Assembly: GCA_030603745.1 (NCBI GenBank)
Contig: JAUVXE010000007.1
Span: forward strand, 43,392-107,391
Direction: 5' to 3'
DNA: 64,000 nucleotides
Source: Coriobacteriia bacterium
GTDB taxonomy: Bacteria; Actinomycetota; Coriobacteriia; Anaerosomatales; SLCP01
This document shows, piece by piece, positions 4,138 to 21,256 of this stretch. The notes beneath the pieces are model-generated. The model was not told the DNA's origin. It saw only the letters and a list, made by a program, of their open reading frames with translations, and made no database searches. Every line of letters begins with the position of its first letter. Within the stretch, counting starts at the first letter, position 1. Both the position numbers and the translations under genes were made by a program.

Positions 4138-4204
4138 CTCGGTGTACTCCGGGTTGCACCGCCATTGTAGAATACCGGGATGACGTCGGCCTGAGAGGTT
4201 TGGT

Positions 4205-5264: not shown

Positions 5265-8200
5265 CTACCGCTCGTAGGTCCGTGGCGCCGCGTGGCAGCC
5301 GGCGGCCGCACATGAACCGCCGGTGGCGGCGTGCGCGTACCCGAGCCCCCCGCGGATCAGGTGGTACTCCGTGGGGCTCCCGTGACTCACGTGGCACGCC
5401 TCGCACCCGATCCCGAGCCCCGACGCGCCCCCGCCGTGCAGCTCGTGCAGCTCACCGGCCACCTGGTCGCGGAACCCGCTTCCAGCCACGCCTTCACGGT
5501 AGACGTCGCGACGGTGGCAGTCGTAACAGAGCAGCGCGTCCTCGGCGGGGCGCGTCGCGAGGAAGCCCCCGCGCAGCAGCGGCGCGGCGGGGCTGACGTG
5601 CGGACCGGCGGCCTCGGTAGGCGCGGCGGCGTTGCCGTGGCAGTCGACGCAGTAGAGCACCGAGTCGACGCTCCAGCCCGCCTCGAAGGTGACCGGCGCG
5701 TTCTCGGCGGTCGCCGAGGGGCCGAACGTGGCATGGACGGAGAGGTTGCCCTCGTCGACCTCGGCGGCGATGTCGCGCGGCGAGCCGCCCCACCCTGCCG
5801 AGGCGTGGCACTTGAAGCAGAGCTGGTACTCGTGGTCGATGCCCTCCACGAGCTGGTCGGTCGCGCTGACGCCCCAGGTGCCGGCGATCAGGCCGTAGGC
5901 CGCCGGCGCGCTCGCGGCATCAGCGGTCATCGCGTGCACGTTGTGGCAGTCGACGCACTCGGCGTGGCGAGCGAACCCGGCCTCCTCGGCGGAGTCGTGG
6001 GCACCGGGGATCGCGCTCGCCGGGTGGCGGCTGCGGCCCACGGCCCCGAGGTCCGCCACCGCGAGCGCGGGCGTGCCGCCCGCCATCTCGGTCCCTCCCG
6101 CCCAGCGGGTATCCACGATCTCGAGCGCGGTCGACGAGCCGTCGATCGCGAGCACGTGCACCGCCGGGGTCACGGACTGCCCGGCGACCTCCGACAGCAC
6201 GCCGGCGCCCGCCGCGATCAGCTGGACGGTGCCGTCGCCGTTCACGTCGCCGACGGCGAGCGAGCTCGTCACCGCACGCGCGCCCGTGGGCACCGGGCTG
6301 CCGAACGCGACCCCGTCGGCCTCGAACACCACGACCCCGTTCTGGCCGGTCTCGCTGCGCATCGCCACGCCGATCCCGGTCGAACCGCCGGGCAGGAACG
6401 CGCCGACCGCGGTGTCCCATGCCGAGGAGCCTCCGGGCGTGAGCGTGGCATCGATGGACGCGAGCTCGCTGCCCGCGGCGCTGATGATCGAGACGGTCCC
6501 GGTGGTCTCGCCGGAGTTCGCGTAGACGATCTCGTTGGCCGCCGGGGTCGCGGACCAGACGTTGCCCACCGAGGGGCCCCTCGGGGCACGGCCGGTGGCG
6601 TACGGGCCCTCGACCACGAGCTGGCCGGGCGTGACGCCCGACTCGCGGATCACGCGCACCTCGCCGGGCTGGGTCTCGTCGGCGGTGAGCGAGGTGACCA
6701 CCAGCGAGCGACGCGCGCCGCCGAGGTCACCCGCGGCGAGGCCCGAGGCGTTGAGGCCGACACCCACCGGCCCCGCGACGCGGTCGAACTTCTCAAGGAT
6801 GTCGTCGAAACGGTAGATGGTCAGGTGGCTCGCGCCGCTCCCCTCGGTGCTGACGACCGCCACCTCGACGGTGCCGCCGGCCGCGAAGTCGCCGACCGCG
6901 AGGACCGAGGCCGCCGCGGTCTCCTCGATGCTGTGAGCCGTGGTCGCCAGGCCGGCGAGGTCGTCGAAGCGCGCGACCCGAAGCAGGGGTGCCGCGGGGT
7001 CGGCGACGACGAGTTCGAGGGTGCCGAGACCGTCGATGTCACCTGCCGCGAGCGCGCCGGAACGATAGCCGGAGAGGTAGCGCCGGGGCCCTTCGAGAGC
7101 CCGGGGGGCGGCGGTCCCGCGCTCCTGCGTGTAGACGTGCAGGGCGCTGTAGGCGAGCGGCAGGCGCTCGGGGTCCCAGGAGACGAGAAGCTCCGCGCCC
7201 TCCTCGCCGGGCTCGTAGGGGCGCACGCCGATGGAGGCCATGTCGACCACGCCGTCCGATGCGGCGAGCGCGGGGTTGTGGCAGCCGTAGCAGAGCTCAC
7301 GGCCCTCGACCTCGGCGAGCTTGGGCACCAGGCCGCCGTCACCGTCGTCGACACCCATGGGGTTGTGGCAGTTCTGGCACTCGCCGGCGGCCCGCGTGGT
7401 CTCCTCGGAACCGGTCCACTCGGCGCTGACCGCGACGCTCACGCCCGAGAGGCCGTGGATCGAGTCCTCGTACGGGCCGTCGCCCCCATAGGTGACGAGC
7501 GCCTCCTCGTGGCAGCCGTAGCACAGCGTGCGCGGCGAGGCCGGGTCGACGGTCCAGGTCGCGGGAGCCGATGGGGGCAGGAGCTCGGCGCGGATGAGCG
7601 GCGCGATGTCCGAACCGTGGGATGCGTGGCAGGCCGAGCAGGTGATCTCCGTGCCCGACGCCGGGCTGGCGATCCGGTCCGCGTGCGCGGTCTGCGCGTA
7701 CACGTCGAGCCCGCCGAAGCGGTTGTCCTCGGCGGTGCGCGATTCGAAGTGGCAGGTAGCGCAGTACTCCTCGCCCTGATAGAACGCGGTGCCGTCCGAG
7801 GTGAACGCGCGGAGCAGGCGTGCGAAGGGCTGCTCGGTCACGGGGTCCTTCTCGGCGCCGTGCGCGTCGTGGCAGGAGCTGCACTGCTTGGGCGAGGGCC
7901 CGTAGGCCGAGGGATCGGGCGCCATCGAATGGACCGAGGAGCGCAGCAGCTCGCCCTGGACGTCGAGCACCGAGCCGAGGCCGTCGACCCCGTGGCAGGT
8001 CAGGCAGAGCGCCTGGTCACCGGTGTCGGACGGCTGCGCGACGATCAGCGCCGAACCGGTGGTCTCCCACGAGCCGGCCATCGGGTACGACACCACGCCG
8101 GGGGCCGTGTGGGTGCGGTGACACATCGCGCAGGCGTCGGGCCCGTCCTCGGGGCTGACGTGGGGCGCGTCCGAGGCGAGCGAGGCGGCGGGGGCGACGA

Positions 8201-8306
8201 GCAGCATGGCGAAGACGGCAGCGCCGAGAGCGACGCGCCATCGCACACCCCGATACCCCGTGCCGGTTCGTCCCGCGAGCGGGGACGCGACTCGACCCAA
8301 CGTCAT
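5265..8306 (-). CDS. Secreted 14-heme c-type cytochrome with central FG-GAP/VCBS-like beta-propeller insert
   Basis: By my count, 13 CxxCH motifs plus a C-terminal CAAAGCH (CX4CH). Eight lie N-terminal and six C-terminal of a roughly 400-aa heme-free region. That region carries repeated GD(I/F/L/V)xxxG...(V/L)V motifs: AAGDIDGLGTLELVVAD, VGDFAAGGTVEVAVVS, AAGDLGGARRSLVVTS, VGDVNGDGTVQLIAAG. A signal peptide is present (AVFAMLLVAPAASLA). ATG 8306 has a GGAAG RBS; the track start is TTG 8312. Confidence 0.85.
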   Translation of the reverse strand: MTLGRVASPLAGRTGTGYRGVRWRVALGAAVFAMLLVAPAASLASDAPHVSPEDGPDACAMCHRTHTAPGVVSYPMAGSWETTGSALIVAQPSDTGDQALCLTCHGVDGLGSVLDVQGELLRSSVHSMAPDPSAYGPSPKQCSSCHDAHGAEKDPVTEQPFARLLRAFTSDGTAFYQGEEYCATCHFESRTAEDNRFGGLDVYAQTAHADRIASPASGTEITCSACHASHGSDIAPLIRAELLPPSAPATWTVDPASPRTLCYGCHEEALVTYGGDGPYEDSIHGLSGVSVAVSAEWTGSEETTRAAGECQNCHNPMGVDDGDGGLVPKLAEVEGRELCYGCHNPALAASDGVVDMASIGVRPYEPGEEGAELLVSWDPERLPLAYSALHVYTQERGTAAPRALEGPRRYLSGYRSGALAAGDIDGLGTLELVVADPAAPLLRVARFDDLAGLATTAHSIEETAAASVLAVGDFAAGGTVEVAVVSTEGSGASHLTIYRFDDILEKFDRVAGPVGVGLNASGLAAGDLGGARRSLVVTSLTADETQPGEVRVIRESGVTPGQLVVEGPYATGRAPRGPSVGNVWSATPAANEIVYANSGETTGTVSIISAAGSELASIDATLTPGGSSAWDTAVGAFLPGGSTGIGVAMRSETGQNGVVVFEADGVAFGSPVPTGARAVTSSLAVGDVNGDGTVQLIAAGAGVLSEVAGQSVTPAVHVLAIDGSSTALEIVDTRWAGGTEMAGGTPALAVADLGAVGRSRHPASAIPGAHDSAEEAGFARHAECVDCHNVHAMTADAASAPAAYGLIAGTWGVSATDQLVEGIDHEYQLCFKCHASAGWGGSPRDIAAEVDEGNLSVHATFGPSATAENAPVTFEAGWSVDSVLYCVDCHGNAAAPTEAAGPHVSPAAPLLRGGFLATRPAEDALLCYDCHRRDVYREGVAGSGFRDQVAGELHELHGGGASGLGIGCEACHVSHGSPTEYHLIRGGLGYAHAATGGSCAAAGCHAAPRTYER

Positions 8307-8386
8307 ACGCAACTTCCGTCCCGGAATCGTCGTTCGGCGCGGGATAGCCGGTCCCTCCGCCGAGGACCCTCACGACAGTATACCGT

Positions 8387-9967
8387 TCACGTTCCCCGAG
8401 GGACAGGCGAATCCTGCCCGTCCTCACCGTCCCTGCCGCCCCGCGGGGGCCGTCTGCGCCCCTCCGTCTCGCCGGGGAGGAGGAACTCCTCGGCGAAGGA
8501 ACGGGCGTCGTAGACGTCGAGCCCGCGTGCCCTGCCGATGACCTGCAGAGTGGGGTCGCCCGTGAGGAGCGAGCGCGTCCGGAGCGCGAGCGTGAGCGTC
8601 TCCGCCTGGTCGGGATCGAGGCCGTAGGTGCGCCCCACGATCGAGACGTCCGGACGCGAGATCTCACGCTCCTCGAGCGGCGGCAGGCCGGGGAACGCCT
8701 CCGGCACCACCGCGGAGGCCGGAGCCGCGACGAGCCGGACCCTTCCCCACCGGGCGCGACGCCCGGCGAGAAGGTCGCGCAGCGCGGGCAGGGCCGGTCC
8801 GCTCACCGCGACGGTCACCGCCCGCAGGTCGAACAGGAGCAGCAGGGGCGCGCCGAACAGCAGGAACGCCGAGAGCGCGGCGAGCAGGCCCGGTCCTCCC
8901 GGCCACAGGGTCAGCATGCCCGCACGTGCGGCCCCGTCCCACTCCCACGCTTGCACGCGCGCGTTGCCGGTGTCCGCGATCCACGCGACGCCCCCGGCGA
9001 CCGCGACGTCGTTCGGGAAGGCGAGCTGCCCGGCCGCGCCCCCCGGCTCGCCGAGGCGCGCGACCTCGCTCCCGCTCTCGGAGACGAGCACGACCTGGTG
9101 CGAGAAGGCATCGGCGAGCGCGAAGTAGACCGGGGCGCCGGGCTCGGCCATCACCACGTCGAAGCCGCGCACGAGCCGGCCGAGCGGCAGCGAGCGCACC
9201 TGCTCGCCCTCGCCGTCGAACTCCACGAGCCGGCGGTTGTTGCTGTCCGCGATCCACACGCGCCCGCCGAGCGCCTTGACCGCGTTGGGATAGTCGAACC
9301 CGTCACCGGCGTCGGGGGCGCCGGTCTCCTCGGCGGAGCGCGGCAGCACGCCGAGGACCTCGCCGTCGCGGGCCAGGTGCCAGACCCGGTGCGGGCCGGA
9401 GACGTCGGTGACGTAGAGCGTGCCGTCGTCGGCGACATCGACCGCGAGCGGCGCCCAGAGGGGGTCGGGCACCGGCGTGGTCTCGAGCGAGGGGGTGATC
9501 GTCTCGACGAACGAGCCGGTCGCCAGGTCGAACGCGAGCACCGCCGAGAGCGCGCGGTCGGTCACGTAGAGCTCGCCGACCCGCTCGTTGGCGGCGAGGT
9601 AGAGCGGCACCTCGAGCTCCGTCTCGCCGAGGGGCTCCTCGGCGGCGCCGTCGATCCGGAACACGGCGACCAGCCCCGCGAGGGAGTCGCCAACGTAGAC
9701 GCGGTCGTCGGCGACGGTCACGGAGAGCGGGCGCAGCAGTGCCGGGTCGCCCGTCCGCGGGAGAGAGAACGCGTAGGCGGGCGGCGTGGGCCGTCCGGCG
9801 GCGTCGGGGCGCGGCGTGATCGGTCCGCCGAGGGCGCGGAGCACATCGGGGACGAGCCCCGCCAGGCCGAGGAGTGCGAGCAGGACGACGGCGATATGGC
9901 GCGCCTGCCGTCTGCGCCGGTATGCGCGCACGGTTCGCGTGCTCGGACGATCGCTGCGCTTCGGCAC
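8387..9967 (-). CDS. Membrane-spanning NHL-repeat beta-propeller protein with conserved cytoplasmic C-terminal domain (paralog 1)
   Basis: 526 aa. The order is an N-terminal TM (IAVVLLALLGLAGLV), then NHL-like blades (VYVGDSLAGLVAVF, LYVTDRALSAVLAF, LYVTDVSGPHRVWHL, VWIADSNNRRLVEF, AWIADTGNARVQAW). A second TM follows (LLAALSAFLLFGAPLLLLF), then a roughly 150-aa C-terminal domain shared with the 18695..20239 protein. Confidence 0.8.
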   Translation of the reverse strand: MPKRSDRPSTRTVRAYRRRRQARHIAVVLLALLGLAGLVPDVLRALGGPITPRPDAAGRPTPPAYAFSLPRTGDPALLRPLSVTVADDRVYVGDSLAGLVAVFRIDGAAEEPLGETELEVPLYLAANERVGELYVTDRALSAVLAFDLATGSFVETITPSLETTPVPDPLWAPLAVDVADDGTLYVTDVSGPHRVWHLARDGEVLGVLPRSAEETGAPDAGDGFDYPNAVKALGGRVWIADSNNRRLVEFDGEGEQVRSLPLGRLVRGFDVVMAEPGAPVYFALADAFSHQVVLVSESGSEVARLGEPGGAAGQLAFPNDVAVAGGVAWIADTGNARVQAWEWDGAARAGMLTLWPGGPGLLAALSAFLLFGAPLLLLFDLRAVTVAVSGPALPALRDLLAGRRARWGRVRLVAAPASAVVPEAFPGLPPLEEREISRPDVSIVGRTYGLDPDQAETLTLALRTRSLLTGDPTLQVIGRARGLDVYDARSFAEEFLLPGETEGRRRPPRGGRDGEDGQDSPVPRGT

Positions 9968-9998: not shown

Positions 9999-10877
9999 CT
10001 ACTGTCCGGTCGACGCCCTCGCCACGGCGATCAGCGCGTCCCGGTGCTCAGCCGGGTTGCTCGACGAGGTCGAGACCTCGATCAACACCAGGATAGCGCC
10101 GTCGGGGACGGCGACCACCGCGAGACCGTCGCGCGTGCCGAAGTAGGCGTCCTTGGTGCCGACCTTCACGTTCTGTCCGTTGACCGAGTAGTAGGTCCGG
10201 ACCCGCTCGTCCACGCGGCGCTTCACCATCTCGGCGTCCTGGAACTGCTCGACCTCGACCGCGAGGCGTCCCATCTTCCCGCTCGACTCAGGGAGATAGT
10301 CCCTGAACAGGGCGAAGGGGTCGGAGTAGATGCGCTGGCCCACGAATCCGGGGAGGCGGTCGGGGATGTAGTTGACGAGGTTCGCGATGGGGCCCACCGG
10401 CAGTCCGGTATCGTCGCCCGGCGGGGTGGCGCCCGGCGTCTGACCGCCGGTCTGGCCGCCGCTACCGGGGGTCGATGCCGGCGGTGTGGTCGCGCCGGCC
10501 GTCGAGCCGGTCTTGGCGCGCACGTCGGCGAGCAGGGTGCCCGTGTCGCGGTAGGCGCCGTCGCTCGCGGCGATCTCGGCGAGCGCGCGCTCGGCGGCCT
10601 CGAGGTCGCCCTCGGCGATCGCGTCGAGCGCCTCGGCGTAGAGCGCGGCGAGTTTGGTGTGGAGATCGCACGTGATGACCTCGGTGGTCACGCCATGGTC
10701 GGCGACCTGGTCGACCGGGACCTCGATCTCCTCGGTGGTGTCGGAGACGATCTCGCCCTGGGTGCAGATCACGACCTCACCGGTCTGGACGGTGACCATC
10801 TGCTTCCGGCAACCGGGAACGACCGCCAGTCCGGCCACGAGCGCGAGAACGAGTACGAGCTTCCAGATGTGCCTCAT
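9999..10877 (-). CDS. Lipoprotein of unknown function
   Basis: Real gene inside the artefactual 9999..12005 ORF. ATG 10877 follows an AGGAGG RBS. A lipobox is present (LVLALVAGLAVVPGC), as is a Thr/Pro/Gly linker (GATTPPASTPGSGGQTGGQTPGATPPG). Its start overlaps the upstream stop by 4 nt (ATGA). Confidence 0.75.
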   Translation of the reverse strand: MRHIWKLVLVLALVAGLAVVPGCRKQMVTVQTGEVVICTQGEIVSDTTEEIEVPVDQVADHGVTTEVITCDLHTKLAALYAEALDAIAEGDLEAAERALAEIAASDGAYRDTGTLLADVRAKTGSTAGATTPPASTPGSGGQTGGQTPGATPPGDDTGLPVGPIANLVNYIPDRLPGFVGQRIYSDPFALFRDYLPESSGKMGRLAVEVEQFQDAEMVKRRVDERVRTYYSVNGQNVKVGTKDAYFGTRDGLAVVAVPDGAILVLIEVSTSSSNPAEHRDALIAVARASTGQ

Positions 10878-12424
10878 CGATCCTGACCTCCTGCGGTACC
10901 CGCTGATGCGTCGGTGCCCGCCGTGTGAGCGAGCATGCGGCGTGCCGAGATCCAGGCGAGCGCGCATGCCGCAAGTGCCAGGGCCGCAAGCTGCGCCGGT
11001 GCCGGAACCGGCGTGAACACTATCGTCGCATACTCGGACCCGTAGTCCTGCTGTACCTGGGGCGGAATCCACCTCATCCACACATGCAGGGGGGTGAACG
11101 CGAGTGACGCGTGGCCTCCCAGCGCCGTCAGGGCGCCGAGGAGACCCGCGAGCGCCTGAGTGCGGGTCGGCGACCCCACCGCGGCGGCGATCGCCACGCA
11201 CGCGACGCTGAACGCAAGCCAGCCTCCCACCGTCTGGACGCCGAGCATCCGGAAGTCTGCGGCGAAGTCCCCGCCCCCGTCGAGCGTCGCCCGCACCGCC
11301 ACTTCGACACCGGGGGACGCGAACGCGACCAGCGCCGAGGCCGCCGCGAGCGACGCGAGAACGAGCGAGAGATGCGGCAGCGGCGCGCGAGCCGGGCGGT
11401 CCGCGCTCCTCGCCGAGTGCCGCCCCGAGCCTCCCGGAACGACGAGCAGGACTACCGCGATCACGATCAGGACGCTCGCCCATCCGGCCGCATCGACCAG
11501 GATCGGCCGCGGGCCGAAGACGCCGGTCGCCTCCTCGACGAAGAGCAGGCTCGTGATCAGCGGCACGGCGAGCATCCAGGCGGCGCCCGCGCGCCGTGGG
11601 CCGGCGTGTATCGCGACGTAGAGCGAGAGCGCGAGCAGCAGCGCACGGCTCGCGGCCGCGGGCAGCACGGACGCGTCGATGAGCGACGCGGAGTCCCATC
11701 CGGCCGCGGGAAGCGCCCATGCGAGCGCGGAGACCAGCGTGCCGACGCCGGAGAGCGTATAGACGAGCGCCGGGCGGTGATCGCGGGCCACGTACACGGC
11801 GACCAGGACCGAGAGCGCCCAGGCGAGCCCCGCGACCACGAACGCGACCTCCTGGGAGGTGTGGGCGACGAAGAGGGAGAGCGAACTCGGCCGCTCCCAG
11901 TTGCCGAGGATCCCCGCGGTGCCCACGACGGCGAGCAGCGCCGCCGACAGGGGCCCGAAGCGACGCTGGCGAAGCGCGGCGCCGAGCACGAGCAGCGCGC
12001 CCCACACGCTCGTCGTCCAGAACGCGACGACGGTGCCGGGCGGCGAATCGGAGTACCTGCTCAGCGCGACGAGCGCCGGCGCGAGCGTCCCGCCGAGCGC
12101 CCCCGCACCGAGAAGCGCTATGGCCCGCGCCCGACCGAGTGACGCGAGCACGCCGCGCCCGGGGAGCCCGCCCATCAGGAAGAGGAGGACCGCCGTGAAC
12201 ACGGCGGTCGCGAGCACGAGCGCGGGGTCCTCGACGAACGGAGTGACGGCCGTCTCGAACACGAAGGTGGCCGCGGCGGCCAGCGCGAGAAGGACCCAGG
12301 CGACGGCGAGCACCACGGTCGAGGGTCGGGGGAGCCGGGTGCGTGCGGATGCGGCAGCAGGGTCAGCCACCGCGGACGTAGGGGAAGGGCCGGGCACTGC
12401 CCGGCCCTTCCCTCGAGTCCACAT
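10874..12424 (-). CDS. Polytopic membrane protein, DMT/EamA-like N-terminal half
   Basis: About 516 aa and almost entirely hydrophobic helices, at least 10 by eye. An EamA-like stretch reads LGGTLAPALVALSRYSDSPPGTVVAFWTTSVWGALLVLGAAL. I chose ATG 12424 because the track start 12469 would overlap the upstream cytochrome gene. The RBS is weak, so the start is uncertain. Confidence 0.65.
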   Translation of the reverse strand: MWTRGKGRAVPGPSPTSAVADPAAASARTRLPRPSTVVLAVAWVLLALAAAATFVFETAVTPFVEDPALVLATAVFTAVLLFLMGGLPGRGVLASLGRARAIALLGAGALGGTLAPALVALSRYSDSPPGTVVAFWTTSVWGALLVLGAALRQRRFGPLSAALLAVVGTAGILGNWERPSSLSLFVAHTSQEVAFVVAGLAWALSVLVAVYVARDHRPALVYTLSGVGTLVSALAWALPAAGWDSASLIDASVLPAAASRALLLALSLYVAIHAGPRRAGAAWMLAVPLITSLLFVEEATGVFGPRPILVDAAGWASVLIVIAVVLLVVPGGSGRHSARSADRPARAPLPHLSLVLASLAAASALVAFASPGVEVAVRATLDGGGDFAADFRMLGVQTVGGWLAFSVACVAIAAAVGSPTRTQALAGLLGALTALGGHASLAFTPLHVWMRWIPPQVQQDYGSEYATIVFTPVPAPAQLAALALAACALAWISARRMLAHTAGTDASAGTAGGQDR

Positions 12425-12453
12425 CGCGCGAACCCGATCTGGTGCTGTTGCGA

Positions 12454-13641
12454 TTACTTGTTGTGGCATTCCTGGCAGACACCACGGTTGTCGAGACGCA
12501 GCAGCGCGTTGCTCTGCGTGGGATCGACGCCACCGTTACCGGAGTCGGGCTCAGGATCGGTGCTGTTCCACACGTTGGCGTAGCCCTCCATCGTGACTGC
12601 GGAGCCGTGCGCAACGTGGCAGGTCAGGCAGTCGACCCAGGAATCCGAGCCGACCACGCCACCATCGGTCGCCAGCGGCACACCGGGGTTACCGATGAGC
12701 GGACGCGGCCCGAGGTAGTTGGACATGGGGACGTTCACCGGGTGACGGTGACGGGTCACCATGCCGAAGCCATCTGCGGCGTCGTAGGCGCCGGCGGGAT
12801 CGATGGTCCTGACCTTGTAGCCGTCAGCGTCGTACACGCCGACGTTGGTGGTGCCGGACTCGACCACGTACTGCGTGTGGCACGCCGCACACCAGTTGCT
12901 GATGCCCTTGTTGGCATCGCCGCCGGGCGCCTTGGCGTACTGCGGGGTGGTGTAGTTCGGCTCGTAGTCGTTCATCTGCGCCGCGCCGGGCTCGTGGAGG
13001 AGCCAGCCGCCGGCCGGATAGTTGGTCTCGTTCGAGATCACGTACGGGGTGGGAGTGAACTCACCCGGCACGAGCTCGTCGTAACCGCCGACCCGCACGC
13101 CGTTCACGACATCCTTGAGGATGCGGTAGTTGGAGCTACCGTGCACGTCGTGGCAGGAGGTGCAGCTCATCGGGATGGCGGGACCCGCACCCGTGCTGAA
13201 CGGGAAGGGACCGCCGTCGGGGCCACCGCCCCACGCCGGCCAGGAGCCTGCGACCGAGTGCTTGCTGTCGCCGACGCCGTGCTCGTTGTTCAGGTCGAAA
13301 AGACCCGAGTTCAACGGAGCACCGAGGTCGCCCCACTCGTCACTCTCGTAGACACCGTCGACCACGTTGGTGGCCGCACCGGCGGCAGCGGAGCCGTGGC
13401 AGGTCAGGCAGAACTCGTAGACCTCGTCGGCGGTGGAGATGAGCAGGGCGCTGCGCTGCTCGTTCGCGCTGTTCGTCCACGTGATGGGACTCGCAGCAGT
13501 GTGGGCCCGGTGGCAACCGGCGCATGCGTCGGTGTCCATCGAGTAGCCACCGTGGATCGCGAAGTTAGCGAGCGCGATGCCGGGGGTGAGCATGACCGCC
13601 GCCACAACGGCGATCGCGAATGCGATTGACAGCTTCCGCAT
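12454..13641 (-). CDS. OmcS-like secreted hexaheme c-type cytochrome
   Basis: Six CxxCH motifs: CAGCH, CLTCH, CTSCH, CAACH, CLTCH, CQECH. The signal peptide is AVVAAVMLTPGIALA. Motif order and flanks recall Geobacter OmcS. These are the mature N-terminus NFAIHGG..CAGCHRAH, CTSCHDVHGSSNYRIL, NWCAACHT...RHRHP, CLTCHVAHGS and the C-terminal CQECHNK. ATG 13641 follows a GAGAGAGGGG RBS; the track start GTG 13650 overlaps the fdnH-like stop. Confidence 0.8.
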   Translation of the reverse strand: MRKLSIAFAIAVVAAVMLTPGIALANFAIHGGYSMDTDACAGCHRAHTAASPITWTNSANEQRSALLISTADEVYEFCLTCHGSAAAGAATNVVDGVYESDEWGDLGAPLNSGLFDLNNEHGVGDSKHSVAGSWPAWGGGPDGGPFPFSTGAGPAIPMSCTSCHDVHGSSNYRILKDVVNGVRVGGYDELVPGEFTPTPYVISNETNYPAGGWLLHEPGAAQMNDYEPNYTTPQYAKAPGGDANKGISNWCAACHTQYVVESGTTNVGVYDADGYKVRTIDPAGAYDAADGFGMVTRHRHPVNVPMSNYLGPRPLIGNPGVPLATDGGVVGSDSWVDCLTCHVAHGSAVTMEGYANVWNSTDPEPDSGNGGVDPTQSNALLRLDNRGVCQECHNK

Positions 13642-13646
13642 ACCTA

Positions 13647-14507
13647 TCACCCCTCTCTCATTCCGGCCGACTCTTCCATGTTCCGCTGACGGCGGGCGAT
13701 CACCGCGAGCAGGCCACCGGCGAAGATCGTCGGCACGAGCGCTGCCTTGGCGAACGGGCTGTTCAGCAGGTTCGACACCATCGGCGTGATGTGATCCTCG
13801 ACGAACGGATCAGCCTTGGGCTGTACGAGCAGGGCGGTCTTGCTTGCCCAGACCATACTACCATCGCCGTGTGCCGACAGGTAGCCGTTGGCGGGGTTGC
13901 TCACCCACGCGACGACCGCGTCGCGCGTGTCCCACTTCATGGCCTTGGCCGGGCAGGTGTAGACGCAGCTCGGCTCGTGGTCCATCTCGGGGATCGCGGG
14001 GCTACCCGGCAGCCGCTGGCCGTTGGTGGGCAGCGGGTTGCCGTAGGCGACGCCGCGCTGCGTGGTGGCAGCGGCGATGTCGGCATCGGAACCGGCGCGG
14101 CCCCAGCACAGGGTGCACTTCCACGACTTCGAGGCGGCGAACAGGTCGCTACCTTCGCCGACCTTGGGATAGCCGGAGCGCTTGCAGTCCACCACGCACT
14201 GACGGTTGCACTGGCTCGGGTTGCACTTGTCGGGATCGATCGACACCGCGCCGTTGGCCTGCTTGGTCAGCGCCTTGAACGGGCACCGGCGGACGCAGGG
14301 CGGATCGGGACAGTGCCAGCAGCTGAAGCGGACGAACGGACCCATGTCCACGCGCTTCTGGGACTTGATCATGACTCGCGTCCCCGGATCGACCTTGTGG
14401 ACGCCGTCGCTGAGCGCCTTCATCTGCCAGGTACGCTTGCAGCTGATGACGCAACCGCTGCATCGGACACACCTGTCGACATCCTGGAATACTGCCATCC
14501 TAGTCAT
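13647..14507 (-). CDS. FdnH-like 4x[4Fe-4S] electron-transfer subunit with C-terminal membrane anchor
   Basis: 286 aa with ferredoxin-type Cys clusters (CVRCSGCVISC, CWHCPDPPCVRRCP, CNRQCVVDC, CTLCWGR, CVYTCP). A C-terminal TM helix is present (ALVPTIFAGGLLAVIA). An AAGGAGGTG RBS precedes the start, which lies 14 nt after the fdnG-like stop. Confidence 0.85.
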   Translation of the reverse strand: MTRMAVFQDVDRCVRCSGCVISCKRTWQMKALSDGVHKVDPGTRVMIKSQKRVDMGPFVRFSCWHCPDPPCVRRCPFKALTKQANGAVSIDPDKCNPSQCNRQCVVDCKRSGYPKVGEGSDLFAASKSWKCTLCWGRAGSDADIAAATTQRGVAYGNPLPTNGQRLPGSPAIPEMDHEPSCVYTCPAKAMKWDTRDAVVAWVSNPANGYLSAHGDGSMVWASKTALLVQPKADPFVEDHITPMVSNLLNSPFAKAALVPTIFAGGLLAVIARRQRNMEESAGMREG

Positions 14508-14521: not shown

Positions 14522-17500
14522 TTATGCCTTCTCGATCCTGCAGGTGCAGGCCTTGTACTCGGGGATTCGGGTGTTCGCATCGAACGCGTCGATGCACAGG
14601 TCGTTCGCCCGGCTACCGGTCGAGAGACCCTTGTCGCCCCAGTGCCACGGGATGGCGACCACGCCGCGACCGACCCGCTGGTTGCTGCTCGCACCCACGC
14701 CCACCCGGGCGATGAAGCCCTTCGCGAAGACCTCACCCTCGGTGCGGCCCTCCTGGTCGCTCGTGCTGTTGCTGCGAGCGGTGACGATGTTGACCATGTC
14801 GCCCGTCTTGATCTGGTACGTCGCCGCGTCTGCGGAGTTGATCTCGATCCACGGAGTGGGCTCGATCTCGACGTTCCATGGGTTGTTGCGGGTGATCGGT
14901 CCGCCCTGGAAGTGCTCGACGCACCGGATCGTGGTCAGCACGAGCGGGAACTGGGTCGGATCGGCGGTCGGTCCGGGGTAGCTCGCATCGGACGTCGCGA
15001 TCGTGGTGCCGCTGTAGCCGCCGTTGTCCGAGTTGCCGCTGTGGATGAGGTCCCACTTGGCGACGCCACGCGTGTTGCGGCCCCAGAGCGCCGCAAGATC
15101 CTCGCGCGGAGTCTCATAGGGCTCGGTGTGGCCAGGGAAGCGGCCGGAGTAGCTGAGCCCGGGTGAGACGTAGTGCGGGCTTGCGGGGTTCGAGGTCGCC
15201 GGCAGGACCACGTCGGGACGGTCGGCGAGACCGTGCACGAAGCGCCACCAGCGGGAGTAGTGGATCGTGGCCGGCTGGGCGGGCACGAAGAGGCGTGCCA
15301 CCGAGTCGGGGGTCATGTAGTAGTCGACCACGTCGCCCGGGATGTCCAGGTTGTTGTAGAGGACACGACGGTTGACGAGCCACGAGTAGCCCCACGCCGG
15401 GTAGGCGTACGTCTGGTTCGGGTCCGCGTTGTTGCGGCTCTTGGCCCGGTTGTCGACCGCCCAGTTGCCCTGACCGACATGCACGTTGGTGCTGCGGGTG
15501 GAGTCCCACGCGCCGGTGTAGAGCCACATGGTGCCGCCCGTGTAGACGGGGCGGGTGCACTGGATGTAGAGCGACTCGGCGACGAGCTCGGAACCGTAGA
15601 CGGTCGCGGACTCGGGTGCCGTCTTGTTGGCATACCACATCTCGGTGGTATCGGAACGGTCCTCGAAGGCCACGGCATCGGCCGGGCTCCAGCCGTGCTG
15701 GTCCTTGTAGAGCTTGTTGTAGACCGCGGTGTCGGCCGGGTTGTTGGAGACGCCCCAGTTGAGCGGAGCGCTGTTCCACACCGCACGGATGTGGCTGAAC
15801 GCGTCGGCCTTGTCGAACGCGTACGCGAGCCTCAGCAGAAGCTCGAGGTCGGCCTTCGAGTTGCCCACCGGGGCGATGGCCCGCTCGCGCCACTGGAGCA
15901 CGCGACCGGAGTTGGCGGTCGAGCCTGCTTCCTCGACGTGGGAACACGCCGGGAGGAGGTAGGTGACGCCGTCGCTCTTGCGCTTGGCCGCCGAGGTCTC
16001 GGTGTCGAACATGTCCACGACCACGAGGACGTCGAGCTCCTCGAGGCCGTCGCGGACGTACTTCTGGTTGGGCTCGGTGACCGCGGGGTTCTGTCCCCAC
16101 ACGACGCATCCCTTGATCTGGCCGGCGGCCATCTTGCGGAACATCGTGATGTGGTCGTCACCGTTGGTCTTGGGCCACAGGTTGTAGATCGCGTCGACCG
16201 CGGCGCGCTTGGCGGCCTTGGCTGCGGCGTCGTTGAACGGCATCGCGTCGATGACGTCGAAGTCGCCGAACCACTTGAGGGTCATGTTGTAGAACCCGCG
16301 ACCCTGCAGGCCGTGGGTGGCGTTGTCCAGCGCCCCGGCCTCGGTCCTGGTGCGATAGGCATCCTCGTACGAGTCGTTCATGACCTGACGGCCGTTGGCG
16401 CCCCGGACGGGGAGACCCCAGAGGCGGTCCATGTACTTGCCGAACGCGTTCGCGTCGTTCATCGCGGGGGTGGCGTGCCCGTAGGCCATGAGGCCGGGGT
16501 TGCCGGAGTAACCCGGGATGAGGTGCTGCAGCACACCCATGTCGGTCGAACCCTGCACGTTGTGGATGCCGCGCAGCGCGTTGATCGCGCCACCGGCGCG
16601 ACCGACGTTGCCGGTCAGCGCCATGAGCGTGGCGAACGCTTTGACGTTCTGCGAGCCGTGGGTGTGCTGGGTGAGGCCCATCGCGTAGAGCATCTGGGTC
16701 GCACGGTAGTTCGCCTTGTCACGCGGGTCCTGCTGGCGGTCGGACGCGCCGACGACCGGCTGACCGGTGAGGTACGAGCTCATCGCGCGGCTGTTGTCCA
16801 CGTACGCCTGGGCCACGAAGAGGAGCTCCTCCTCGGTGCAGCCGCAGATGTTCGCGACGACGCTCGGGGTGTAGGCCGCGACGTGCGCCTTCAGCGCGCT
16901 GTACGCGGTACCGGCGTCACGGCAGTCGCCCGCCTTGACCGGCAGGAACTCGACGGCGGTGGCGTCCGGGTCGCCCGGATCGGCCTTGTAGTCGAAGCGC
17001 TCGTAGTCGGTGCCGGCCGAGTTCACCACGAACCGGGCGTCGGTGTACTTCGAGCCGCCCGGCACGAACCTGAGCGTGCTCGGCGTGGTCTCGTCACCGA
17101 TGTTGAAGAACTGGTTGCGAGTCGTGTCGGTGTCGCTGCTCTGAGTCTCGTTGAGGAACTCGAAGAACAGGTCGCGGACCGGCTGCGGCACGCTGCCCGA
17201 GAGACCCTCCATGCGACGGATGACCTCGCGGACGAGGCCCATCACGAAGGCGATGTCGGTTCCCGGACGGATGCGGATGAAACGGCCGCCCTTCTGCTCG
17301 GCAAGGACCGCGGTGCGGGTCTTGCGAGGATCGATGACGATCATCTTGGCAGCGGGGCGCTCGTCATGCGCGCGGAGGATGTGGGCGATGCTCGCCGGAT
17401 GGTTCTCGACGGCGTTGGAGCCCATGAACACGAACAGCGTCGAGTTCGCCATGTCGGCCCAGTTGTTCGTCATGGCGCCTCGTCCGAATGCGGCGGCCAG

Positions 17501-18157
17501 ACCGGCCACCGTGGACGAGTGTCATATACGTGCCTGGTGCTCGATGTTGCTCGTGCCGAAGTTCGCGATCACCTTGCGGTAGAGGTTGTTCTGCTCGTTG
17601 TTGAGGTGCGACGAGCCGAAGAACGCAACCGACTTGGAGTTGTGGCCGTTGGCCGGGGTGACGTCACCGCGAGCGTCCTTCATCGCGAGGGCGATCTCGT
17701 CCATCGCGGTGGCCAGCGGGATCTTGTCCCAGTCGTCGTTGCCGGTGCGCTTGTACGCCACGCCGTCCGTGAAAGACGGGTCGTAGGCGAACTTCGGGTT
17801 GGCCGGGTGCGGACCCGGGTAGGCGCCGAGGCGCCGCGAGTTCGTCACCAGCTGGAACGTGCCTGCGCCCTTGGCGCACAGGCCGCCTGCGTTCCACGGA
17901 GCCATGTGGTCGCCGTAGACATCGAGCACGTTACCGTCGGCGTCGATGTCGACGAGCTGGCCACAGCTCGCGGAGCAGTACGGACAGGTGGTGTGGTAAG
18001 TGTGGTCCACTTCAGCTGCGTTAGCGCTCGAAGGCGCGGCGGCGAACTCGAGACCCGCTGCTCCTACCGCAGCGGTTGCCGCGCCTGCCTTCAAGAACTG
18101 ACGACGAGTCAGCTGCAGACCCTTACCTCCATCCTGGTCCTTATCAAGTTTACCCAT
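14522..18157 (-). CDS. Tat-exported selenocysteine-containing molybdo/tungstopterin oxidoreductase, FdnG-like formate dehydrogenase catalytic subunit (1211 codons, Sec at codon 212)
   Basis: Track ORFs 17522..18157 and 14522..17509 are in the same frame, joined through TGA at 17522..17524. Read-through gives [33 protein letters not shown], matching the FdnG/FdhF Sec active-site context. A twin-arginine signal (TRRQFLKAGAATAAV) and an N-terminal 4Fe-4S motif (CPYCSASCG...CAKG) are present. A SECIS hairpin lies directly downstream. Confidence 0.9.
17481..17517 (-). promoter_or_regulatory. Bacterial SECIS stem-loop for the fdnG-like TGA
   Basis: The mRNA reads UGA CAC UCG UCC ACG GUG GCC GGU CUG GCC GCC GCA UUC GGA CG. 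The lower stem is CGUCC/GGACG and the upper stem GGUGGCC/GGCCGCC, with apical loop GGUCU. Counting U of UGA as 1, U17 and G23-U24 fall in the same register I recall for the E. coli fdhF SECIS. Confidence 0.8.
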
Positions 18158-18345: not shown

Positions 18346-18420
18346 TCATCTGTCTCGCCTCCCTTACCCCGTACACCGATGGGACGGACCCCATTGCCGG
18401 GAGGTCCGCCACAGCACCAG

Positions 18421-18530
18421 TCTCCTTTCCAAGGTCCGGAAGGACGGGAGGCGCCAGGGTTTCCCCGGACACCCTATCGGCCGCGGCGCCATGGCTTTCG
18501 CGGTAGGCGTCCGGGGCTCGGAGACGATGT
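18421..18530 (-). promoter_or_regulatory. Moco/Tuco-type riboswitch aptamer candidate in the 5' leader of the fdnG-like operon
   Basis: The mRNA reads CUCCGAGCCCCGGACGCCUACC...CCGAUAGGGUGUCCGGGGAAACCCUGGCGCCUCCCGUCC...GGAAAGGAGA. It shares five ordered sequence blocks with the tupA leader at 36403..36510. Closing helix: UCUCC...GGAGA. Confidence 0.6.
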
Positions 18531-18576
18531 TCCATTTTCACGGTCCGCGGGACGTTGCCGGTCGATCCCGGGACCC

Positions 18577-18694: not shown

Positions 18695-20239
18695 CTACTC
18701 CCGGCCACCCTGCTCGGCGTCGCTCAGGTACTGCTCGATGAAGAGCCGCGCGTCATAGGCGTCCACGCCCAGCGCGCGCGCCGCGACGGCCAGCGCGGCG
18801 TCCTCGGTGCAGAGCCGCTTGGTGGTCCGGGCGAGCACGAGCATCAGTGCCTCGTCCCGGGTCACCCCGACCCGCTTCATCAGGTCGCGCACGTCGGACT
18901 CGGAGTGCTTGACCAGCGTGATCATCTCGTCGAGACGCACCCCGTCGAGCTCACGGCCGGCGTAGGTCGCGGCATGCTCCTCGGGAGCGATCCAGCGCCA
19001 GCGCTTGCGCGACGCGGCCTCGGCGAGCAGTCCGGCCTCCGCCATCGCCACCAGGAAGTCCTCGGTCACCGCGAACTTCCGGCGGCGCAGGAGGAGCAGG
19101 AGGGGCAGCAGAAGGAGCGGGCTCAGGCAGAGCGCCCACTGGGAGGGCGTCTCGGGCAGCGCGTCGGGCACGAGCGGCACCGGCTCGGGCCAGCCCCACA
19201 CCTGCACCTGATGGTTGAGGCGGTCGGTCACGAAGATCCGCGTGCGGCGGTCGATCGCGAGGTCGTTCGCGTAGCGGAACTGCCCGGGGCCGATCCCGCT
19301 CTGGCCGAACCCGGTGATCCGCTCACCGCCTGACTGGTAGATGTCGACCTGGTGCGCGAGCGCGTCGGCGATGTAGATGCGGTCCTCGGCGTCGATGTCC
19401 ATGCCGCGCGGGATACCGGAGGTCCGCATGATGCGGTCGAACTGCCCGTTCAGGTCGAAGACCTGGACGCGGCGGTTGTTGCTGTCGGATACGTAGATCT
19501 CGTCACCCATGACGAGCACGTCGTTGGGGAAGTAGAAGCGCCCGGGGAGTTGCGAGATCTCGTCGGCCTGTGCGAACGCGCCGAACCGCCGGAGCTCCTG
19601 ACCGTTCTCGTCGAAGACGATGACCTGGTGGAGCTCCACGCGACCGACATCGGTGACGTAGAGGTTGTCGTTCTCATCGAACCCGAGGCCGAGAGGGCCC
19701 CACAGGCGCGCCTCCTCAGGATCGGCGGGGACGACCTTGCGCAAGAAATCGCCATCGAGCGTGAACACGTAGATCGCGCGGTGGCGGCGGTCGGTGACGA
19801 AGAGCTCGTCTTTGCTGTTGATCGCGAGGAAGACCGGGGTGCCGAGCTCCGTGTTCTCGCCGTCGGCGATCTCGTTGAAGGTGAACAGGTAGTCGCCGTC
19901 CACCGTGTAGACACGCACGACGCGCGACGCGGAGTCGGTGACGTAGACCCGGTCGTCACGGCTGACCTCGACGCCGATCGGCGCGGTGAGCGCGTTCTCT
20001 CCGGCGGGACCCGAGATCGAGTAGAGATAGCGCGGCGGATCGACCTGCTCGTCGAAGGTCCGCCCGAGGCCGGGGATCGGCAGGGTGCGGTTCACCGAGA
20101 AGTAGTAGATGGAGTAGAGCACGAGCGCGAGGAGCGCCAGCAGAAGCGCGAGGGCGACCCACTTCTTCCACGCGGCACGGCCGGCGTCCGCGCGGCCGAA
20201 CGAGGCCCGTTCCGGTTGCGTCTGATGATCCATCGACAC
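18695..20239 (-). CDS. Membrane-spanning NHL-repeat beta-propeller protein with conserved cytoplasmic C-terminal domain (paralog 2)
   Basis: 514 aa with an N-terminal TM (WVALALLLALLALVLYSIYYF). NHL blades follow: VYVTDSASRVVRVY, LFVTDRRHRAIYVF, LYVTDVGRVELHQVIVF, IYVSDSNNRRVQVF, IYIADALAHQVDIY, IFVTDRLNHQVQVW. A second TM (LCLSPLLLLPLLLLL) precedes a C-terminal domain ending ...LCTEDAALAVAARALGVDAYDARLFIEQYL. Confidence 0.85.
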   Translation of the reverse strand: MSMDHQTQPERASFGRADAGRAAWKKWVALALLLALLALVLYSIYYFSVNRTLPIPGLGRTFDEQVDPPRYLYSISGPAGENALTAPIGVEVSRDDRVYVTDSASRVVRVYTVDGDYLFTFNEIADGENTELGTPVFLAINSKDELFVTDRRHRAIYVFTLDGDFLRKVVPADPEEARLWGPLGLGFDENDNLYVTDVGRVELHQVIVFDENGQELRRFGAFAQADEISQLPGRFYFPNDVLVMGDEIYVSDSNNRRVQVFDLNGQFDRIMRTSGIPRGMDIDAEDRIYIADALAHQVDIYQSGGERITGFGQSGIGPGQFRYANDLAIDRRTRIFVTDRLNHQVQVWGWPEPVPLVPDALPETPSQWALCLSPLLLLPLLLLLRRRKFAVTEDFLVAMAEAGLLAEAASRKRWRWIAPEEHAATYAGRELDGVRLDEMITLVKHSESDVRDLMKRVGVTRDEALMLVLARTTKRLCTEDAALAVAARALGVDAYDARLFIEQYLSDAEQGGRE

Positions 20240-20245: not shown

Positions 20246-21256
20246 TCAGTCTCTCAGGCGTTCGACGGCCGCCGAGGCGGTCTCGTCGTTCGGGTCGATC
20301 TCGAGCACCTTGCGCCACGTCACGAGCGCGGACTCCGGGTTCCCGAGCTCCTCGTGCAGCTCGGCGGCGATGCGACCCGCCTCCGCGAGGCCCCGGTCGA
20401 GGGCGAACGCGATGCGAGCCTCGGCAAGGGCGCCTTCCGGGTCGGCGGGGCGCAGCGAGCGGGCGCGCTCCAGGCGCTCGGTCGCGCTTCCCTCGGCGGC
20501 GATCTTCGCGAGCTCGTCGCGGGGCTCGTCGCGGCCGGGTGGCGCGTGGTCCGCCGAGGTGCGGAAGTGCTCGGCGGCGCCGGCGATGTCGCCCTCCTCG
20601 AGCAAGAGCAGGCCGAAGTCGTAGTTCGCCTCGGGCATGATCGGGTCGAACATGATGGCGTTCTGCAGGTAGAGGCGCTGATTGGAGTCCGAGCCGAGGC
20701 GCCCGTAGGCGACCGAGAGCGCGTAGTGCGTGTCCGAGGCGCTCCGGCGGATCCGCAGCGCCTCGCGCAGATAGGCGACGGCGTCCTCGTAGCGGCCGAG
20801 CTCGATGTAGGTCACGCCGAGCTGGTAGTAGGCGACCTCGAGGCGGGTGTCGAGCATCGCGTACTCGCTGCCCCCGAGCTGGTCGATGACGGTGAGCCAG
20901 TACTCCTCGGCGGTCTCCCACTCGCCCTGGTACATCGCGACCAGCGCGAGGCCGGAGAGCGCGCTCGGATGGTCGGGGTGGATCTCGAGCGCGGCGTTGA
21001 ACTGCTCGACCGCCTCGCGCAGCCGGCCGGACGCCGCGAGGGCCTCGGCGAGCAGGAGACGGAGCTCCGCGTCGTCAGGGTTCTCGCGGACGGCCTCGAT
21101 GAGGTTGTCGACCGCACGCGACGCCGGCTGCGCACGGCGTTCCTGCAGCTGGTAGGCGGTCACCGTGTAGGCGAGGTAGATGAGTGCGACGAGCAGCAGG
21201 GCGACGACGGACTTGAGCGCCACGTCGAGCCAGCGTATGTCGGATCCGAATCTCAC
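20246..21256 (-). CDS. Membrane-anchored TPR-repeat protein
   Basis: 336 aa with an N-terminal TM (VVALLLVALIYLAYTV). It contains multiple TPR-like A/L/Y-rich 34-mers, for example AEALAASGRLREAVEQFNAALEIHPDHP and YQLGVTYIELGRYEDAVAYLREAL. Confidence 0.8.
   Translation of the reverse strand: MRFGSDIRWLDVALKSVVALLLVALIYLAYTVTAYQLQERRAQPASRAVDNLIEAVRENPDDAELRLLLAEALAASGRLREAVEQFNAALEIHPDHPSALSGLALVAMYQGEWETAEEYWLTVIDQLGGSEYAMLDTRLEVAYYQLGVTYIELGRYEDAVAYLREALRIRRSASDTHYALSVAYGRLGSDSNQRLYLQNAIMFDPIMPEANYDFGLLLLEEGDIAGAAEHFRTSADHAPPGRDEPRDELAKIAAEGSATERLERARSLRPADPEGALAEARIAFALDRGLAEAGRIAAELHEELGNPESALVTWRKVLEIDPNDETASAAVERLRD

Follow-up and report, generated by a model that had tools for sequence, protein, structure and literature searches.

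The stretch of DNA analyzed here, which we refer to as the window, comprises 64,000 nucleotides of a Coriobacteriia bacterium of the Anaerosomatales (assembly GCA_030603745.1, contig JAUVXE010000007.1, positions 43,392 to 107,391), and our gene of interest is a minus-strand gene that encodes a secreted c-type cytochrome with six haems, called the hexahaem below. It lies in a 20-kb minus-strand cluster that is transcribed in the order cytochrome b, 6-7-haem cytochrome, 12-13-haem cytochrome, 20-haem cytochrome, tetratricopeptide repeat (TPR) protein, NHL propeller, fdnG, fdnH, hexahaem, membrane protein, lipoprotein, second NHL propeller and 14-haem cytochrome. Judged by gene order and spacing, the hexahaem gene is the third gene of a predicted operon that is headed by a molybdenum-cofactor (Moco) riboswitch and runs from fdnG through fdnH, the hexahaem gene and the membrane-protein gene to the lipoprotein gene. 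The elements of this operon are as follows.

18406..18535, minus strand: molybdenum/tungsten-cofactor riboswitch in the fdnG leader (Rfam RF01055, 56.3 bits, gathering score 36, E = 2.8e-11)
14522..18157, minus strand: FdnG-like catalytic subunit of a molybdenum/tungsten (Mo/W) bis-molybdopterin guanine dinucleotide (bisMGD) formate dehydrogenase (FDH), 1211 amino acids (aa), with the twin-arginine signal TRRQFLK
13647..14507, minus strand: FdnH-like 4Fe-4S electron-transfer subunit (Fer4_11, Cys-rich cluster motifs) with one C-terminal transmembrane (TM) helix at residues 252-271
12454..13641, minus strand: OmcS-family hexahaem c-type cytochrome gene, 395 aa from the ATG at 13641 (398 aa from an alternative GTG at 13650)
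10874..12469, minus strand: polytopic membrane protein of no assigned family, about 12 hydrophobic segments, its start overlapping the hexahaem stop by 16 nt
9999..10877, minus strand: predicted lipoprotein with a signal ending in ...VVPGC and no Pfam match, overlapping the membrane-protein gene by 4 nt

The open reading frame (ORF) at 12454..13650 on the minus strand was confirmed, with a GTG start that overlaps the stop of the fdnH-like gene and a 398-aa product. A preliminary description of this DNA had taken the gene start to overlap or abut that stop, which holds for the GTG at 13650, but the ATG at 13641 is the more likely start because it sits 5 nt past the fdnH TGA (13647-13649), is preceded by a Shine-Dalgarno-like GAGGGG run, yields a 395-aa protein that is 100% identical to a public gene call (P0001) and agrees with the N-termini of the homologs. 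The other structural features given in that description, namely the position right after the gene for the FDH iron-sulfur subunit, the six CxxCH motifs and the cleavable signal peptide, were all recovered: the 395-aa translation contains exactly six motifs (C40-H44, C78-H82, C160-H164, C251-H255, C338-H342 and C389-H393) and no other Cys-rich features, and its N-terminus, MRKLSIAFAIAVVAAVMLTPGIALA followed by the mature start NFAIHGG, has the classical layout of a Sec signal, with MRK ahead of a hydrophobic core, ALA before the N, and an AxA cleavage site. Read from the sequence, the translation has no lipobox Cys, no TM helix and no wall-sorting motif. The GC content at third codon positions (GC3) of the gene is 0.86, which is similar to that of its neighbors and indicates that the frame is coding. 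An antisense ORF of 395 aa on the plus strand (12442..13629) was considered and rejected as a high-GC artefact with a non-coding GC3/GC2 pattern; many other long ORFs opposite real genes in the window are artefacts of the same kind, produced by a GC content of ~70%.

Between fdnH and the hexahaem gene the spacer is +5 nt, and the next two spacers, on either side of the membrane-protein gene, are -16 nt (towards the hexahaem gene) and -4 nt (towards the lipoprotein gene). Such a position indicates co-transcription and translational proximity, not stoichiometry, and the stoichiometric co-expression with FDH read from it in the preliminary description was overstated. A terminator and promoter scan of the cluster gave nothing above shuffled background. 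The riboswitch lies between the NHL gene and fdnG and was found upstream of fdnG in all 7 of the 7 related cassettes checked, including that of Parvivirga hydrogeniphila; because of this element, the FDH-hexahaem cassette appears to be a regulatory unit of its own within the larger cytochrome cluster. An in-frame UGA of fdnG (17522-17524), in the context 'HQARI-U-HSS', is predicted to be read as selenocysteine, and right after it lies a hairpin resembling a selenocysteine insertion sequence (dG -28 kcal/mol, z = -2.5). The best NCBIfam match of FdnG is TIGR01553, FDH-N alpha (420 bits, under the 814-bit cut-off), while FdnH matches Pfam Fer4_11 and, weakly and always under the cut-offs, the NCBIfam models HybA, DmsB, FDH3-beta (47 bits, cut-off 240) and FDH-beta.

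The hexahaem gene takes the slot that is held by a cytochrome b gene in ordinary fdnGHI operons. A Pfam scan found no cytochrome b gene in the FDH cassette, and the sole PF01292 gene lies ~7 kb upstream of fdnG and ~11.5 kb from the hexahaem. The polytopic membrane protein encoded next had no Pfam or NCBIfam family match, NrfD included. It was considered as a b-type cytochrome and rejected, because its 15 homologs share a conserved NWERPSSFS motif and no conserved His or Cys, so that it cannot bind haem b. Among the related loci described below, its homologs were found only in FDH cassettes; homologs of the lipoprotein occur in FDH and in hydrogenase cassettes.

Profile comparisons establish the hexahaem as a genuine but remote homolog of OmcS, in support of the OmcS likeness put forward in the preliminary description. 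With hhalign, a profile of 16 window-family sequences aligned to one of 24 OmcS-family proteins with a probability of 99.25% (E = 5.1e-20) over 226 columns covering haems 1-4. The 16-sequence hidden Markov model (HMM), searched against the solved structures, ranked OmcS (6EF8) at the top with E = 4.5e-9 and motifs 1-5 aligned; the runners-up were far weaker (9yuq_N, 0.007; 7tfs_A, 0.037), and no non-polymerising hexahaem family outscored OmcS in this search. A profile built only from 101 Actinomycetota and Chloroflexota members recovered OmcS with a score of 48 bits, which corresponds to E = 8e-12 in a database as large as the PDB set; the OmcS-family rows had been removed from it, yet the remaining rows had been aligned jointly with OmcS relatives. 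An earlier profile that included OmcS relatives was set aside for the comparison with solved structures as not being independent evidence. Using tblastn against the Geobacter omcS locus, the window hexahaem aligned end-to-end with omcS at 26% identity and more weakly with the paralogues omcT and oscC. A single-sequence phmmer search of all solved structures returned no OmcS match and only noise at E ~1, and therefore the relationship is remote and a family profile is needed to reveal it. Because three other multihaem cytochromes of the window (cyt531, cyt417 and cyt374) gave no match to the hexahaem profile, the OmcS signal is not one of CxxCH composition alone. The motif-by-motif comparison with OmcS made in the preliminary description was right in its query contexts, and its OmcS strings match 6EF8, but it paired haem 3 differently: both HMMER and hhalign set 'HGSSNYRIL' against the OmcS 'HGKYRRFV' directly after haem 3, not the later 'AYRIL'.

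A monomer model produced by AlphaFold2 (AF2) from a 141-sequence alignment reached a predicted local distance difference test (pLDDT) score of 77.7 and a predicted template modeling (pTM) score of 0.80, while a model from the 16-sequence alignment (pLDDT 37) was discarded. The sole significant solved-structure match of the former in Foldseek was 6ef8_A, a weak one (E = 9.5e-4, TM 0.31), and a three-dimensional likeness to the OmcS subunit is only hinted at by this model. On the profile evidence, the hexahaem belongs to a large, previously unnamed branch of the OmcS superfamily in Actinomycetota and Chloroflexota, which among the matches listed comprises more than 1,700 90%-identity clusters with a window-type query and more than 1,200 with a Chloroflexota-type query, both of these being lower bounds to higher real totals.

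The alignments also establish a haem-ligand architecture common to the window hexahaem and OmcS. The window-type, Chloroflexota-type and OmcS-type subfamilies have the same arrangement of conserved His residues, h-[1]h-[2]-h-[3]h-[4]-h-[5]h-[6], and all six motif His and six distal His occur in the OmcS order, the distal ones being H30, H47, H128, H167, H300 and H345 in the window protein and H27, H41, H135, H172, H282 and H360 in the OmcS precursor. Among them is the equivalent of residue 16 of mature OmcS, H47, which is invariant in the 141 sequences and lies three residues beyond the proximal His of haem 1. In OmcS, His16 would be the trans ligand of haem 5, the role that Wang and colleagues reportedly assigned to it in 2019. 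OmcS has 12 His axial ligands, 11 of them in cis and one in trans on haem 5 (PMC6584659), and its haems are stacked in the order of the motifs (PMC6584659; PMC7096707). A linear stack from haem 1 to haem 6 would put haem 5 of the same chain out of reach of H47, which adjoins haem 1. Conservation over 25-residue stretches, taken from the 101 Actinomycetota and Chloroflexota sequences, is highest from the mature N-terminus through haem 1 and H47 (0.84), followed by the haem-3 region (0.76) and the C-terminal haem-6 region (0.74). The N- and C-terminal ends of OmcS meet head-to-tail, and both ends are thus among the most conserved stretches of the window family; the N-terminal arm is the lowest-pLDDT ordered part of the AF2 monomer model. 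The position of H47, the conserved ends and the pLDDT of the arm are indirect pointers to head-to-tail contacts, and an oligomerisation of the OmcS type by way of H47 is a tentative proposal, possible in our view and somewhat short of probable.

A scan for relatives, taking one genome per species, gave 79 loci from Actinomycetota, Chloroflexota and a few organisms labelled Eubacteriales, all of them metagenome-assembled genomes, which together with the window's own contig (L001) make 80 loci. FdnH is encoded directly upstream of the hexahaem in 17 of the 80, the large subunit of a [NiFe]-hydrogenase in 11, and an NHL propeller in 29, with the propeller within 3.5 kb in 7 more; none of the three was detected upstream in 9 loci, and the flank was too short in 7. 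The core conserved in Actinomycetota and Chloroflexota consists of a TPR gene, an NHL propeller gene and then the hexahaem gene, and the FDH-hexahaem arrangement is confined to a Coriobacteriia/Anaerosomatales clade. In the sister clade, genes for the small and large subunits of a [NiFe]-hydrogenase stand directly upstream of a hexahaem paralogue, in the slot that the FDH has in the window (L013 5827-9923 and L022 6392-9986; also L016, L017, L019, L023-L026, L030 and L032). The hydrogenase small subunit carries a twin-arginine translocation (Tat) signal and no TM helix, and the Pfam scan of the loci found no cytochrome b gene in the hydrogenase cassettes. A neighbour-joining tree places the FDH-linked and the hydrogenase-linked hexahaems of Actinomycetota as sister clades, with the NHL-linked Chloroflexota proteins outside them, and on some contigs the two cassettes stand in tandem (L027 and L019; L015 and L020). 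All three points, the clade-specific FDH link, the NHL propeller upstream in most loci and the hydrogenase in the sister clade, go beyond the preliminary description. An ORF downstream of the hydrogenase-linked hexahaem in L022 (11438-12802) has no family and no TM helix and may not be a real gene.

The Geobacter omcS locus (L081) contains a 315-aa gene (8809-9756) directly upstream of omcS with borderline NHL and 6-bladed-propeller matches. The window NHL protein (18695..20239) matches this gene (tblastn, E = 1e-5), and therefore an NHL propeller gene followed by an OmcS-type gene constitutes a cross-phylum pair of Geobacter, Actinomycetota and Chloroflexota. No window protein besides the NHL protein and the hexahaem matched this 21-kb Geobacter locus, which spans only part of the osc cluster of companion genes for folding, secretion and morphology (PMC13194489).

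An orthologous cluster with the same gene order (MCL4079376-90) is present in Parvivirga hydrogeniphila. Its hexahaem ortholog (MCL4079381.1 / WP_267192813.1) is annotated as a hypothetical protein and shares a 90%-identity cluster with P0045, whose identity to the window protein is 55%, and the spacing geometry is the same as in the window, including the 16-nt overlap of the membrane-protein gene with the hexahaem. According to its 2022 description (PMC9686372), P. hydrogeniphila is a cultured, Gram-positive organism that requires Fe(III) for growth, has formate and H2 as its only donors, lacks detectable quinones and bears pili-like appendages only on ferrihydrite. The same paper singles the cluster out as probably underlying Fe(III) reduction, citing its multihaem proteins and 'a molybdopterin oxidoreductase', and states that Anaerosomatales genomes encode a formate-consuming reductive glycine pathway; the OmcS homology, the identity of the FDH and the riboswitch are not recognised in it.

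The remaining members of the cytochrome cluster, and the selenocysteine genes found elsewhere in the window, are listed below.

25095..25940, minus strand: membrane cytochrome b of the Ni_hydr_CYTB / FdnI-HydC type (Pfam PF01292, E = 6e-15)
24214..25338, minus strand: 6-7-haem c-type cytochrome (Cytochrome_C7, Paired_CXXCH_1), start uncertain, the ORF overlapping the cytochrome b gene
22912..24165, minus strand: 12-13-haem c-type cytochrome by motif count, 417 aa, conserved in related loci
21307..22902, minus strand: 20-haem c-type cytochrome, 531 aa, 20 CxxCH motifs, conserved in related loci
20246..21256, minus strand: TPR protein (Pfam TPR families), kept upstream of the NHL gene across loci
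18695..20239, minus strand: NHL-repeat 6-bladed beta-propeller, conserved upstream partner of the hexahaem family (Pfam NHL, E = 1e-22)
8387..9967, minus strand: second NHL-repeat beta-propeller (Pfam NHL, E = 1e-17)
5265..8312, minus strand: 14-haem cytochrome, ~1015 aa, 13 CxxCH motifs and one CxxxxCH
52603-52699, minus strand: tRNA-Sec (selC)
52775-54682, minus strand: selB
54689-56110, minus strand: selA
56691-57641, minus strand: selD-like AIRS protein

The cytochrome b and the 6-7-haem cytochrome, with which the cluster begins, would form a putative CbcL-like quinol:cytochrome c module; the pair (24214-25940) resembles a Geobacter CbcL quinol oxidase split in two. The cytochrome b gene stays with the multihaem genes in L005, a locus without FDH. 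The 531-aa cytochrome is unusually dense, with ~27 residues per haem, and is 45-74% identical to its counterparts in related clusters. The 14-haem protein has eight N-terminal haem motifs, a haem-free middle of ~430 aa that is rich in 'GD..G' repeats and six C-terminal motifs. The HMM of the hexahaem family matches its residues 31-235 at 35 bits, and its N-terminal arm, 'APH...CAMCHRTHTA', resembles that of the hexahaem family; it may therefore be a cap or terminal reductase that docks like a wire subunit. Its Parvivirga counterpart shows faint FG-GAP matches, and comparable 12-13-haem fusions occur in four Chloroflexota loci (L039, L053, L058 and L060).

Several other gene groups of the window touch on these proteins or on the cell envelope. 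The selenocysteine toolkit is gathered in one minus-strand block at 52603-57641. A second minus-strand block for Moco and FDH maturation (26388-37613) lies directly upstream of the cytochrome cluster and holds a class-V aminotransferase (cysteine desulfurase-like), a MOSC protein, MoaA, MobB, a 541-aa MobA-FdhD fusion, a ModABC-like ABC transporter of the molybdate/tungstate type and a LysR regulator. A 1393-aa surface protein of DUF7507, DUF11, CARDB and SdrD-B repeats, which are typical of Gram-positive wall proteins, is encoded at 40688-44869 on the minus strand, and CWB2 cell-wall-binding proteins occur inside the cytochrome cluster in L022 and L082; both the wall-type surface protein and the CWB2 proteins fit a monoderm envelope. 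Directly downstream of the cytochrome cluster lies a chemotaxis set (CheB, a CheY-like receiver, MCP and CheR; 3-4263, minus strand), and a YkuD L,D-transpeptidase gene (4205-5248, plus strand) stands between the two.

We think it reasonably probable that the hexahaem serves these donor enzymes as their electron-output module, as part of a large cluster for extracellular electron transfer. Since both donor enzymes are without a cytochrome b gene and each has its own OmcS-type paralogue in that slot, the hexahaem as acceptor of the iron-sulfur chain would be the simplest reading. Formate would be oxidised outside the cytoplasmic membrane at the Mo/W-selenocysteine site of FdnG, and the electrons would run down the iron-sulfur chain of FdnH, pass into the haems of the hexahaem and not into a quinone-reducing cytochrome b, and exit through the 20-, 14- and 12-13-haem cytochromes of the cluster, crossing the Gram-positive wall on their way to Fe(III) or a different external acceptor. 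Among the parts of this scheme, export (a Tat signal on FdnG, a Sec signal on the hexahaem and a TM anchor on FdnH), operon structure and regulation, and the clade-specific coupling to FDH or [NiFe]-hydrogenase can be read from the predicted genes. A direct transfer of electrons from FdnH to the hexahaem is likely, and we infer that the flow is outward. The physiology of P. hydrogeniphila, with its obligate growth with Fe(III) on formate or H2 and no detectable quinones (PMC9686372), fits the hexahaem as the output module, and the FDH maturation and selenocysteine genes of the window agree with it.

A number of points weigh against this scheme. FdnG and FdnH miss the NCBIfam equivalog cut-offs, and therefore we infer formate as the substrate from the best match and the selenocysteine-His motif. 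The contact between FdnH and the hexahaem is suggested indirectly, by gene order. Most members of the family, in Chloroflexota and Thermoleophilia, have no adjoining donor enzyme, and therefore the ancestral role would have been independent of an enzyme. The membrane protein specific to FDH cassettes might offer the electrons another route, namely a quinone site that needs no cofactor, of the NrfD/PsrC type. Formate oxidation and Fe(III) reduction, both taking place outside the membrane, build no obvious proton gradient. Finally, two enzyme-specific paralogues in one genome suit dedicated partner subunits better than a generic wire.

The last point bears on the further proposal that the exported FDH, or the [NiFe]-hydrogenase of the sister cassettes, sits at the base of an OmcS-type head-to-tail polymer that crosses the wall, the whole acting as a quinone-independent formate/H2:Fe(III) oxidoreductase that lies entirely outside the cytoplasm; we regard this complete form as doubtful. 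The larger cytochromes with a 'PH...CxxCHRxHTA' arm, for example the 14-haem protein (5265-8312), would then plug the haem-5/6 end as caps or terminal reductases. An unlikely explanation as well, if one to be taken seriously, is that the hexahaem does not polymerise at all and is a dedicated 1:1 subunit of the gamma type for FDH, with the paralogue serving the hydrogenase, and hands its electrons to the larger cytochromes, forming no filaments. It would be analogous to the tetrahaem c3 of Desulfovibrio FdhABC3, and the haem bound by the His after haem 1 would belong to the same chain or to a partner protein. The tight operon coupling, the two enzyme-specific sister clades (sometimes on one contig, as in L027 and L019), the weak structural similarity to the OmcS subunit and the larger cytochromes of the cluster, which could carry long-range transfer, all agree with such a subunit. 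They have to be set against a 12-His architecture as in OmcS, where one ligand must come in trans, and an H47 that stands 3 residues from the proximal His of haem 1 and would not reach haem 5 of its own chain in a linear stack; moreover, the mature N-terminus and the haem-6 region, the ends that meet head-to-tail in OmcS, are strongly conserved, and the hexahaem has no anchor of its own.

The hexahaem could also be a free-standing nanowire of the OmcS type with no direct link to FDH, the FDH cassette being merely inserted between the NHL and the hexahaem genes. FDH electrons would then go to the membrane, by way of the polytopic protein and quinone, and other cytochromes would charge the wire. 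The ancestral and commonest context is indeed TPR-NHL-hexahaem without an enzyme, the NHL-omcS synteny is common to Geobacter, and the membrane protein is specific to FDH cassettes, where it accompanies a TM-anchored FdnH. We nevertheless consider this explanation improbable, as a hydrogenase without TM anchor or membrane partner independently fills the same slot, the hexahaem paralogues co-diverge with the type of enzyme, the riboswitch-led operon includes the hexahaem at a 5-nt spacer, the membrane protein lacks both redox-ligand residues and a match to NrfD or any other Pfam family, and no quinones were detected in Parvivirga. Least probable of all, to our mind, is operation in reverse, in which electrons supplied by a syntrophic partner, by Fe(0) or Fe(II), or by a cathode would pass through the cytochromes to reduce CO2 to formate or, in the sister cassette, protons to H2. 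Metal-dependent FDHs and [NiFe]-hydrogenases are generally known to be reversible, the sequence itself sets no direction, and the reductive glycine pathway reported for Anaerosomatales genomes (PMC9686372) consumes formate; on the other hand, the cultured relative oxidises formate or H2 with Fe(III) for growth, and the cluster carries a quinol-oxidase-like cytochrome b and multihaem module that is typical of outward transfer.

With the hexahaem taken as the output module of its donor enzymes, the locus bears on two wider questions, namely how a nanowire is charged and how electrons pass through a thick Gram-positive wall. The presence of an OmcS-type gene and an electron-producing enzyme in one riboswitch-controlled operon, with a hydrogenase version in the sister clade, names a concrete donor-acceptor pair and offers a genetic explanation for the obligate Fe(III) respiration of P. 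hydrogeniphila on formate or H2 without detectable quinones; and, this organism being cultured, the proposed pairing of donor and wire is testable. If the enzyme did sit at the base of a polymer, it would be the first cytochrome nanowire whose charging protein is readable from the operon. Beyond this locus, thousands of 'hypothetical' or 'cytochrome c3 family' proteins of Actinomycetota and Chloroflexota become recognisable as OmcS relatives. The literature searched on OmcS with Coriobacteriia, Actinomycetota or Chloroflexota, or on OmcS-like proteins with FDH or hydrogenase, held no description of the arrangement. The preliminary description had likewise presented it as an arrangement not seen described, which was too broad, as an OmcS-like hexahaem of a monoderm (CwcA, PMC7911101) and the Parvivirga cluster (PMC9686372) had already been published, the latter with neither OmcS nor FDH recognised. 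In comparison with the literature searched, the new elements would be an OmcS-type cytochrome as third gene of an fdnGH operon and, in the sister clade, of a hydrogenase operon, the control of a hexahaem operon by a Moco riboswitch, and the size and phyletic spread of the OmcS-type branch in Actinomycetota and Chloroflexota.

Among known systems, the window hexahaem resembles OmcS of Geobacter sulfurreducens (GSU2504; PDB 6EF8/6NEF) in its six CxxCH motifs in the same order, its Sec signal and its loop-rich chain with ~60-70 residues per haem. It differs in being about 25-26% identical, in belonging to a monoderm host without an outer membrane and in being encoded within an FDH operon under a Moco riboswitch; OmcS itself polymerises head-to-tail into micrometre filaments with His-haem ligation between subunits. 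OmcS homologs are widespread in Gram-negative Desulfobacterota and relatives (PMC10954620, PMC10553843). CwcA of Thermincola (TherJR_1122 / Tfer_0075) is a remote OmcS homolog of 18% identity (PMC7911101) and has been proposed to polymerise across peptidoglycan with haem 5 ligated in trans (PMC7911101). Going by its published description, CwcA is a cell-wall cytochrome that shares with the window protein its six haems and a Gram-positive, iron-reducing kind of host; nothing in the literature searched links CwcA to an FDH or a hydrogenase.

On the side of the enzyme, the FDH resembles the E. coli-type FdnGHI in its Tat-exported selenocysteine FdnG with an 'HQAR(I/V)-U-H' motif, its 4Fe-4S FdnH with a C-terminal TM helix and its gene order of alpha subunit, beta subunit and electron acceptor. 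The third gene, however, codes for a secreted hexahaem of the c type, where FdnGHI has the membrane dihaem cytochrome b556 (FdnI), and therefore a quinone-reducing redox loop is not expected; the window FdnG is also ~200 aa longer, and both subunits fall under the equivalog cut-offs. The FdhABC3 of Desulfovibrio is a periplasmic FDH with a dedicated tetrahaem c3 subunit, the cytochrome being encoded in the operon, and the [NiFe] and [NiFeSe] hydrogenases of Desulfovibrio reduce type-I cytochrome c3. These enzymes differ from the window system in the c3 fold, which is not OmcS-like, and in a Gram-negative host where the electrons return to the membrane for sulfate reduction and do not go to an external acceptor. 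What they share with it is an exported donor enzyme that passes its electrons to a multihaem c-type cytochrome, and not to a cytochrome b and quinone.

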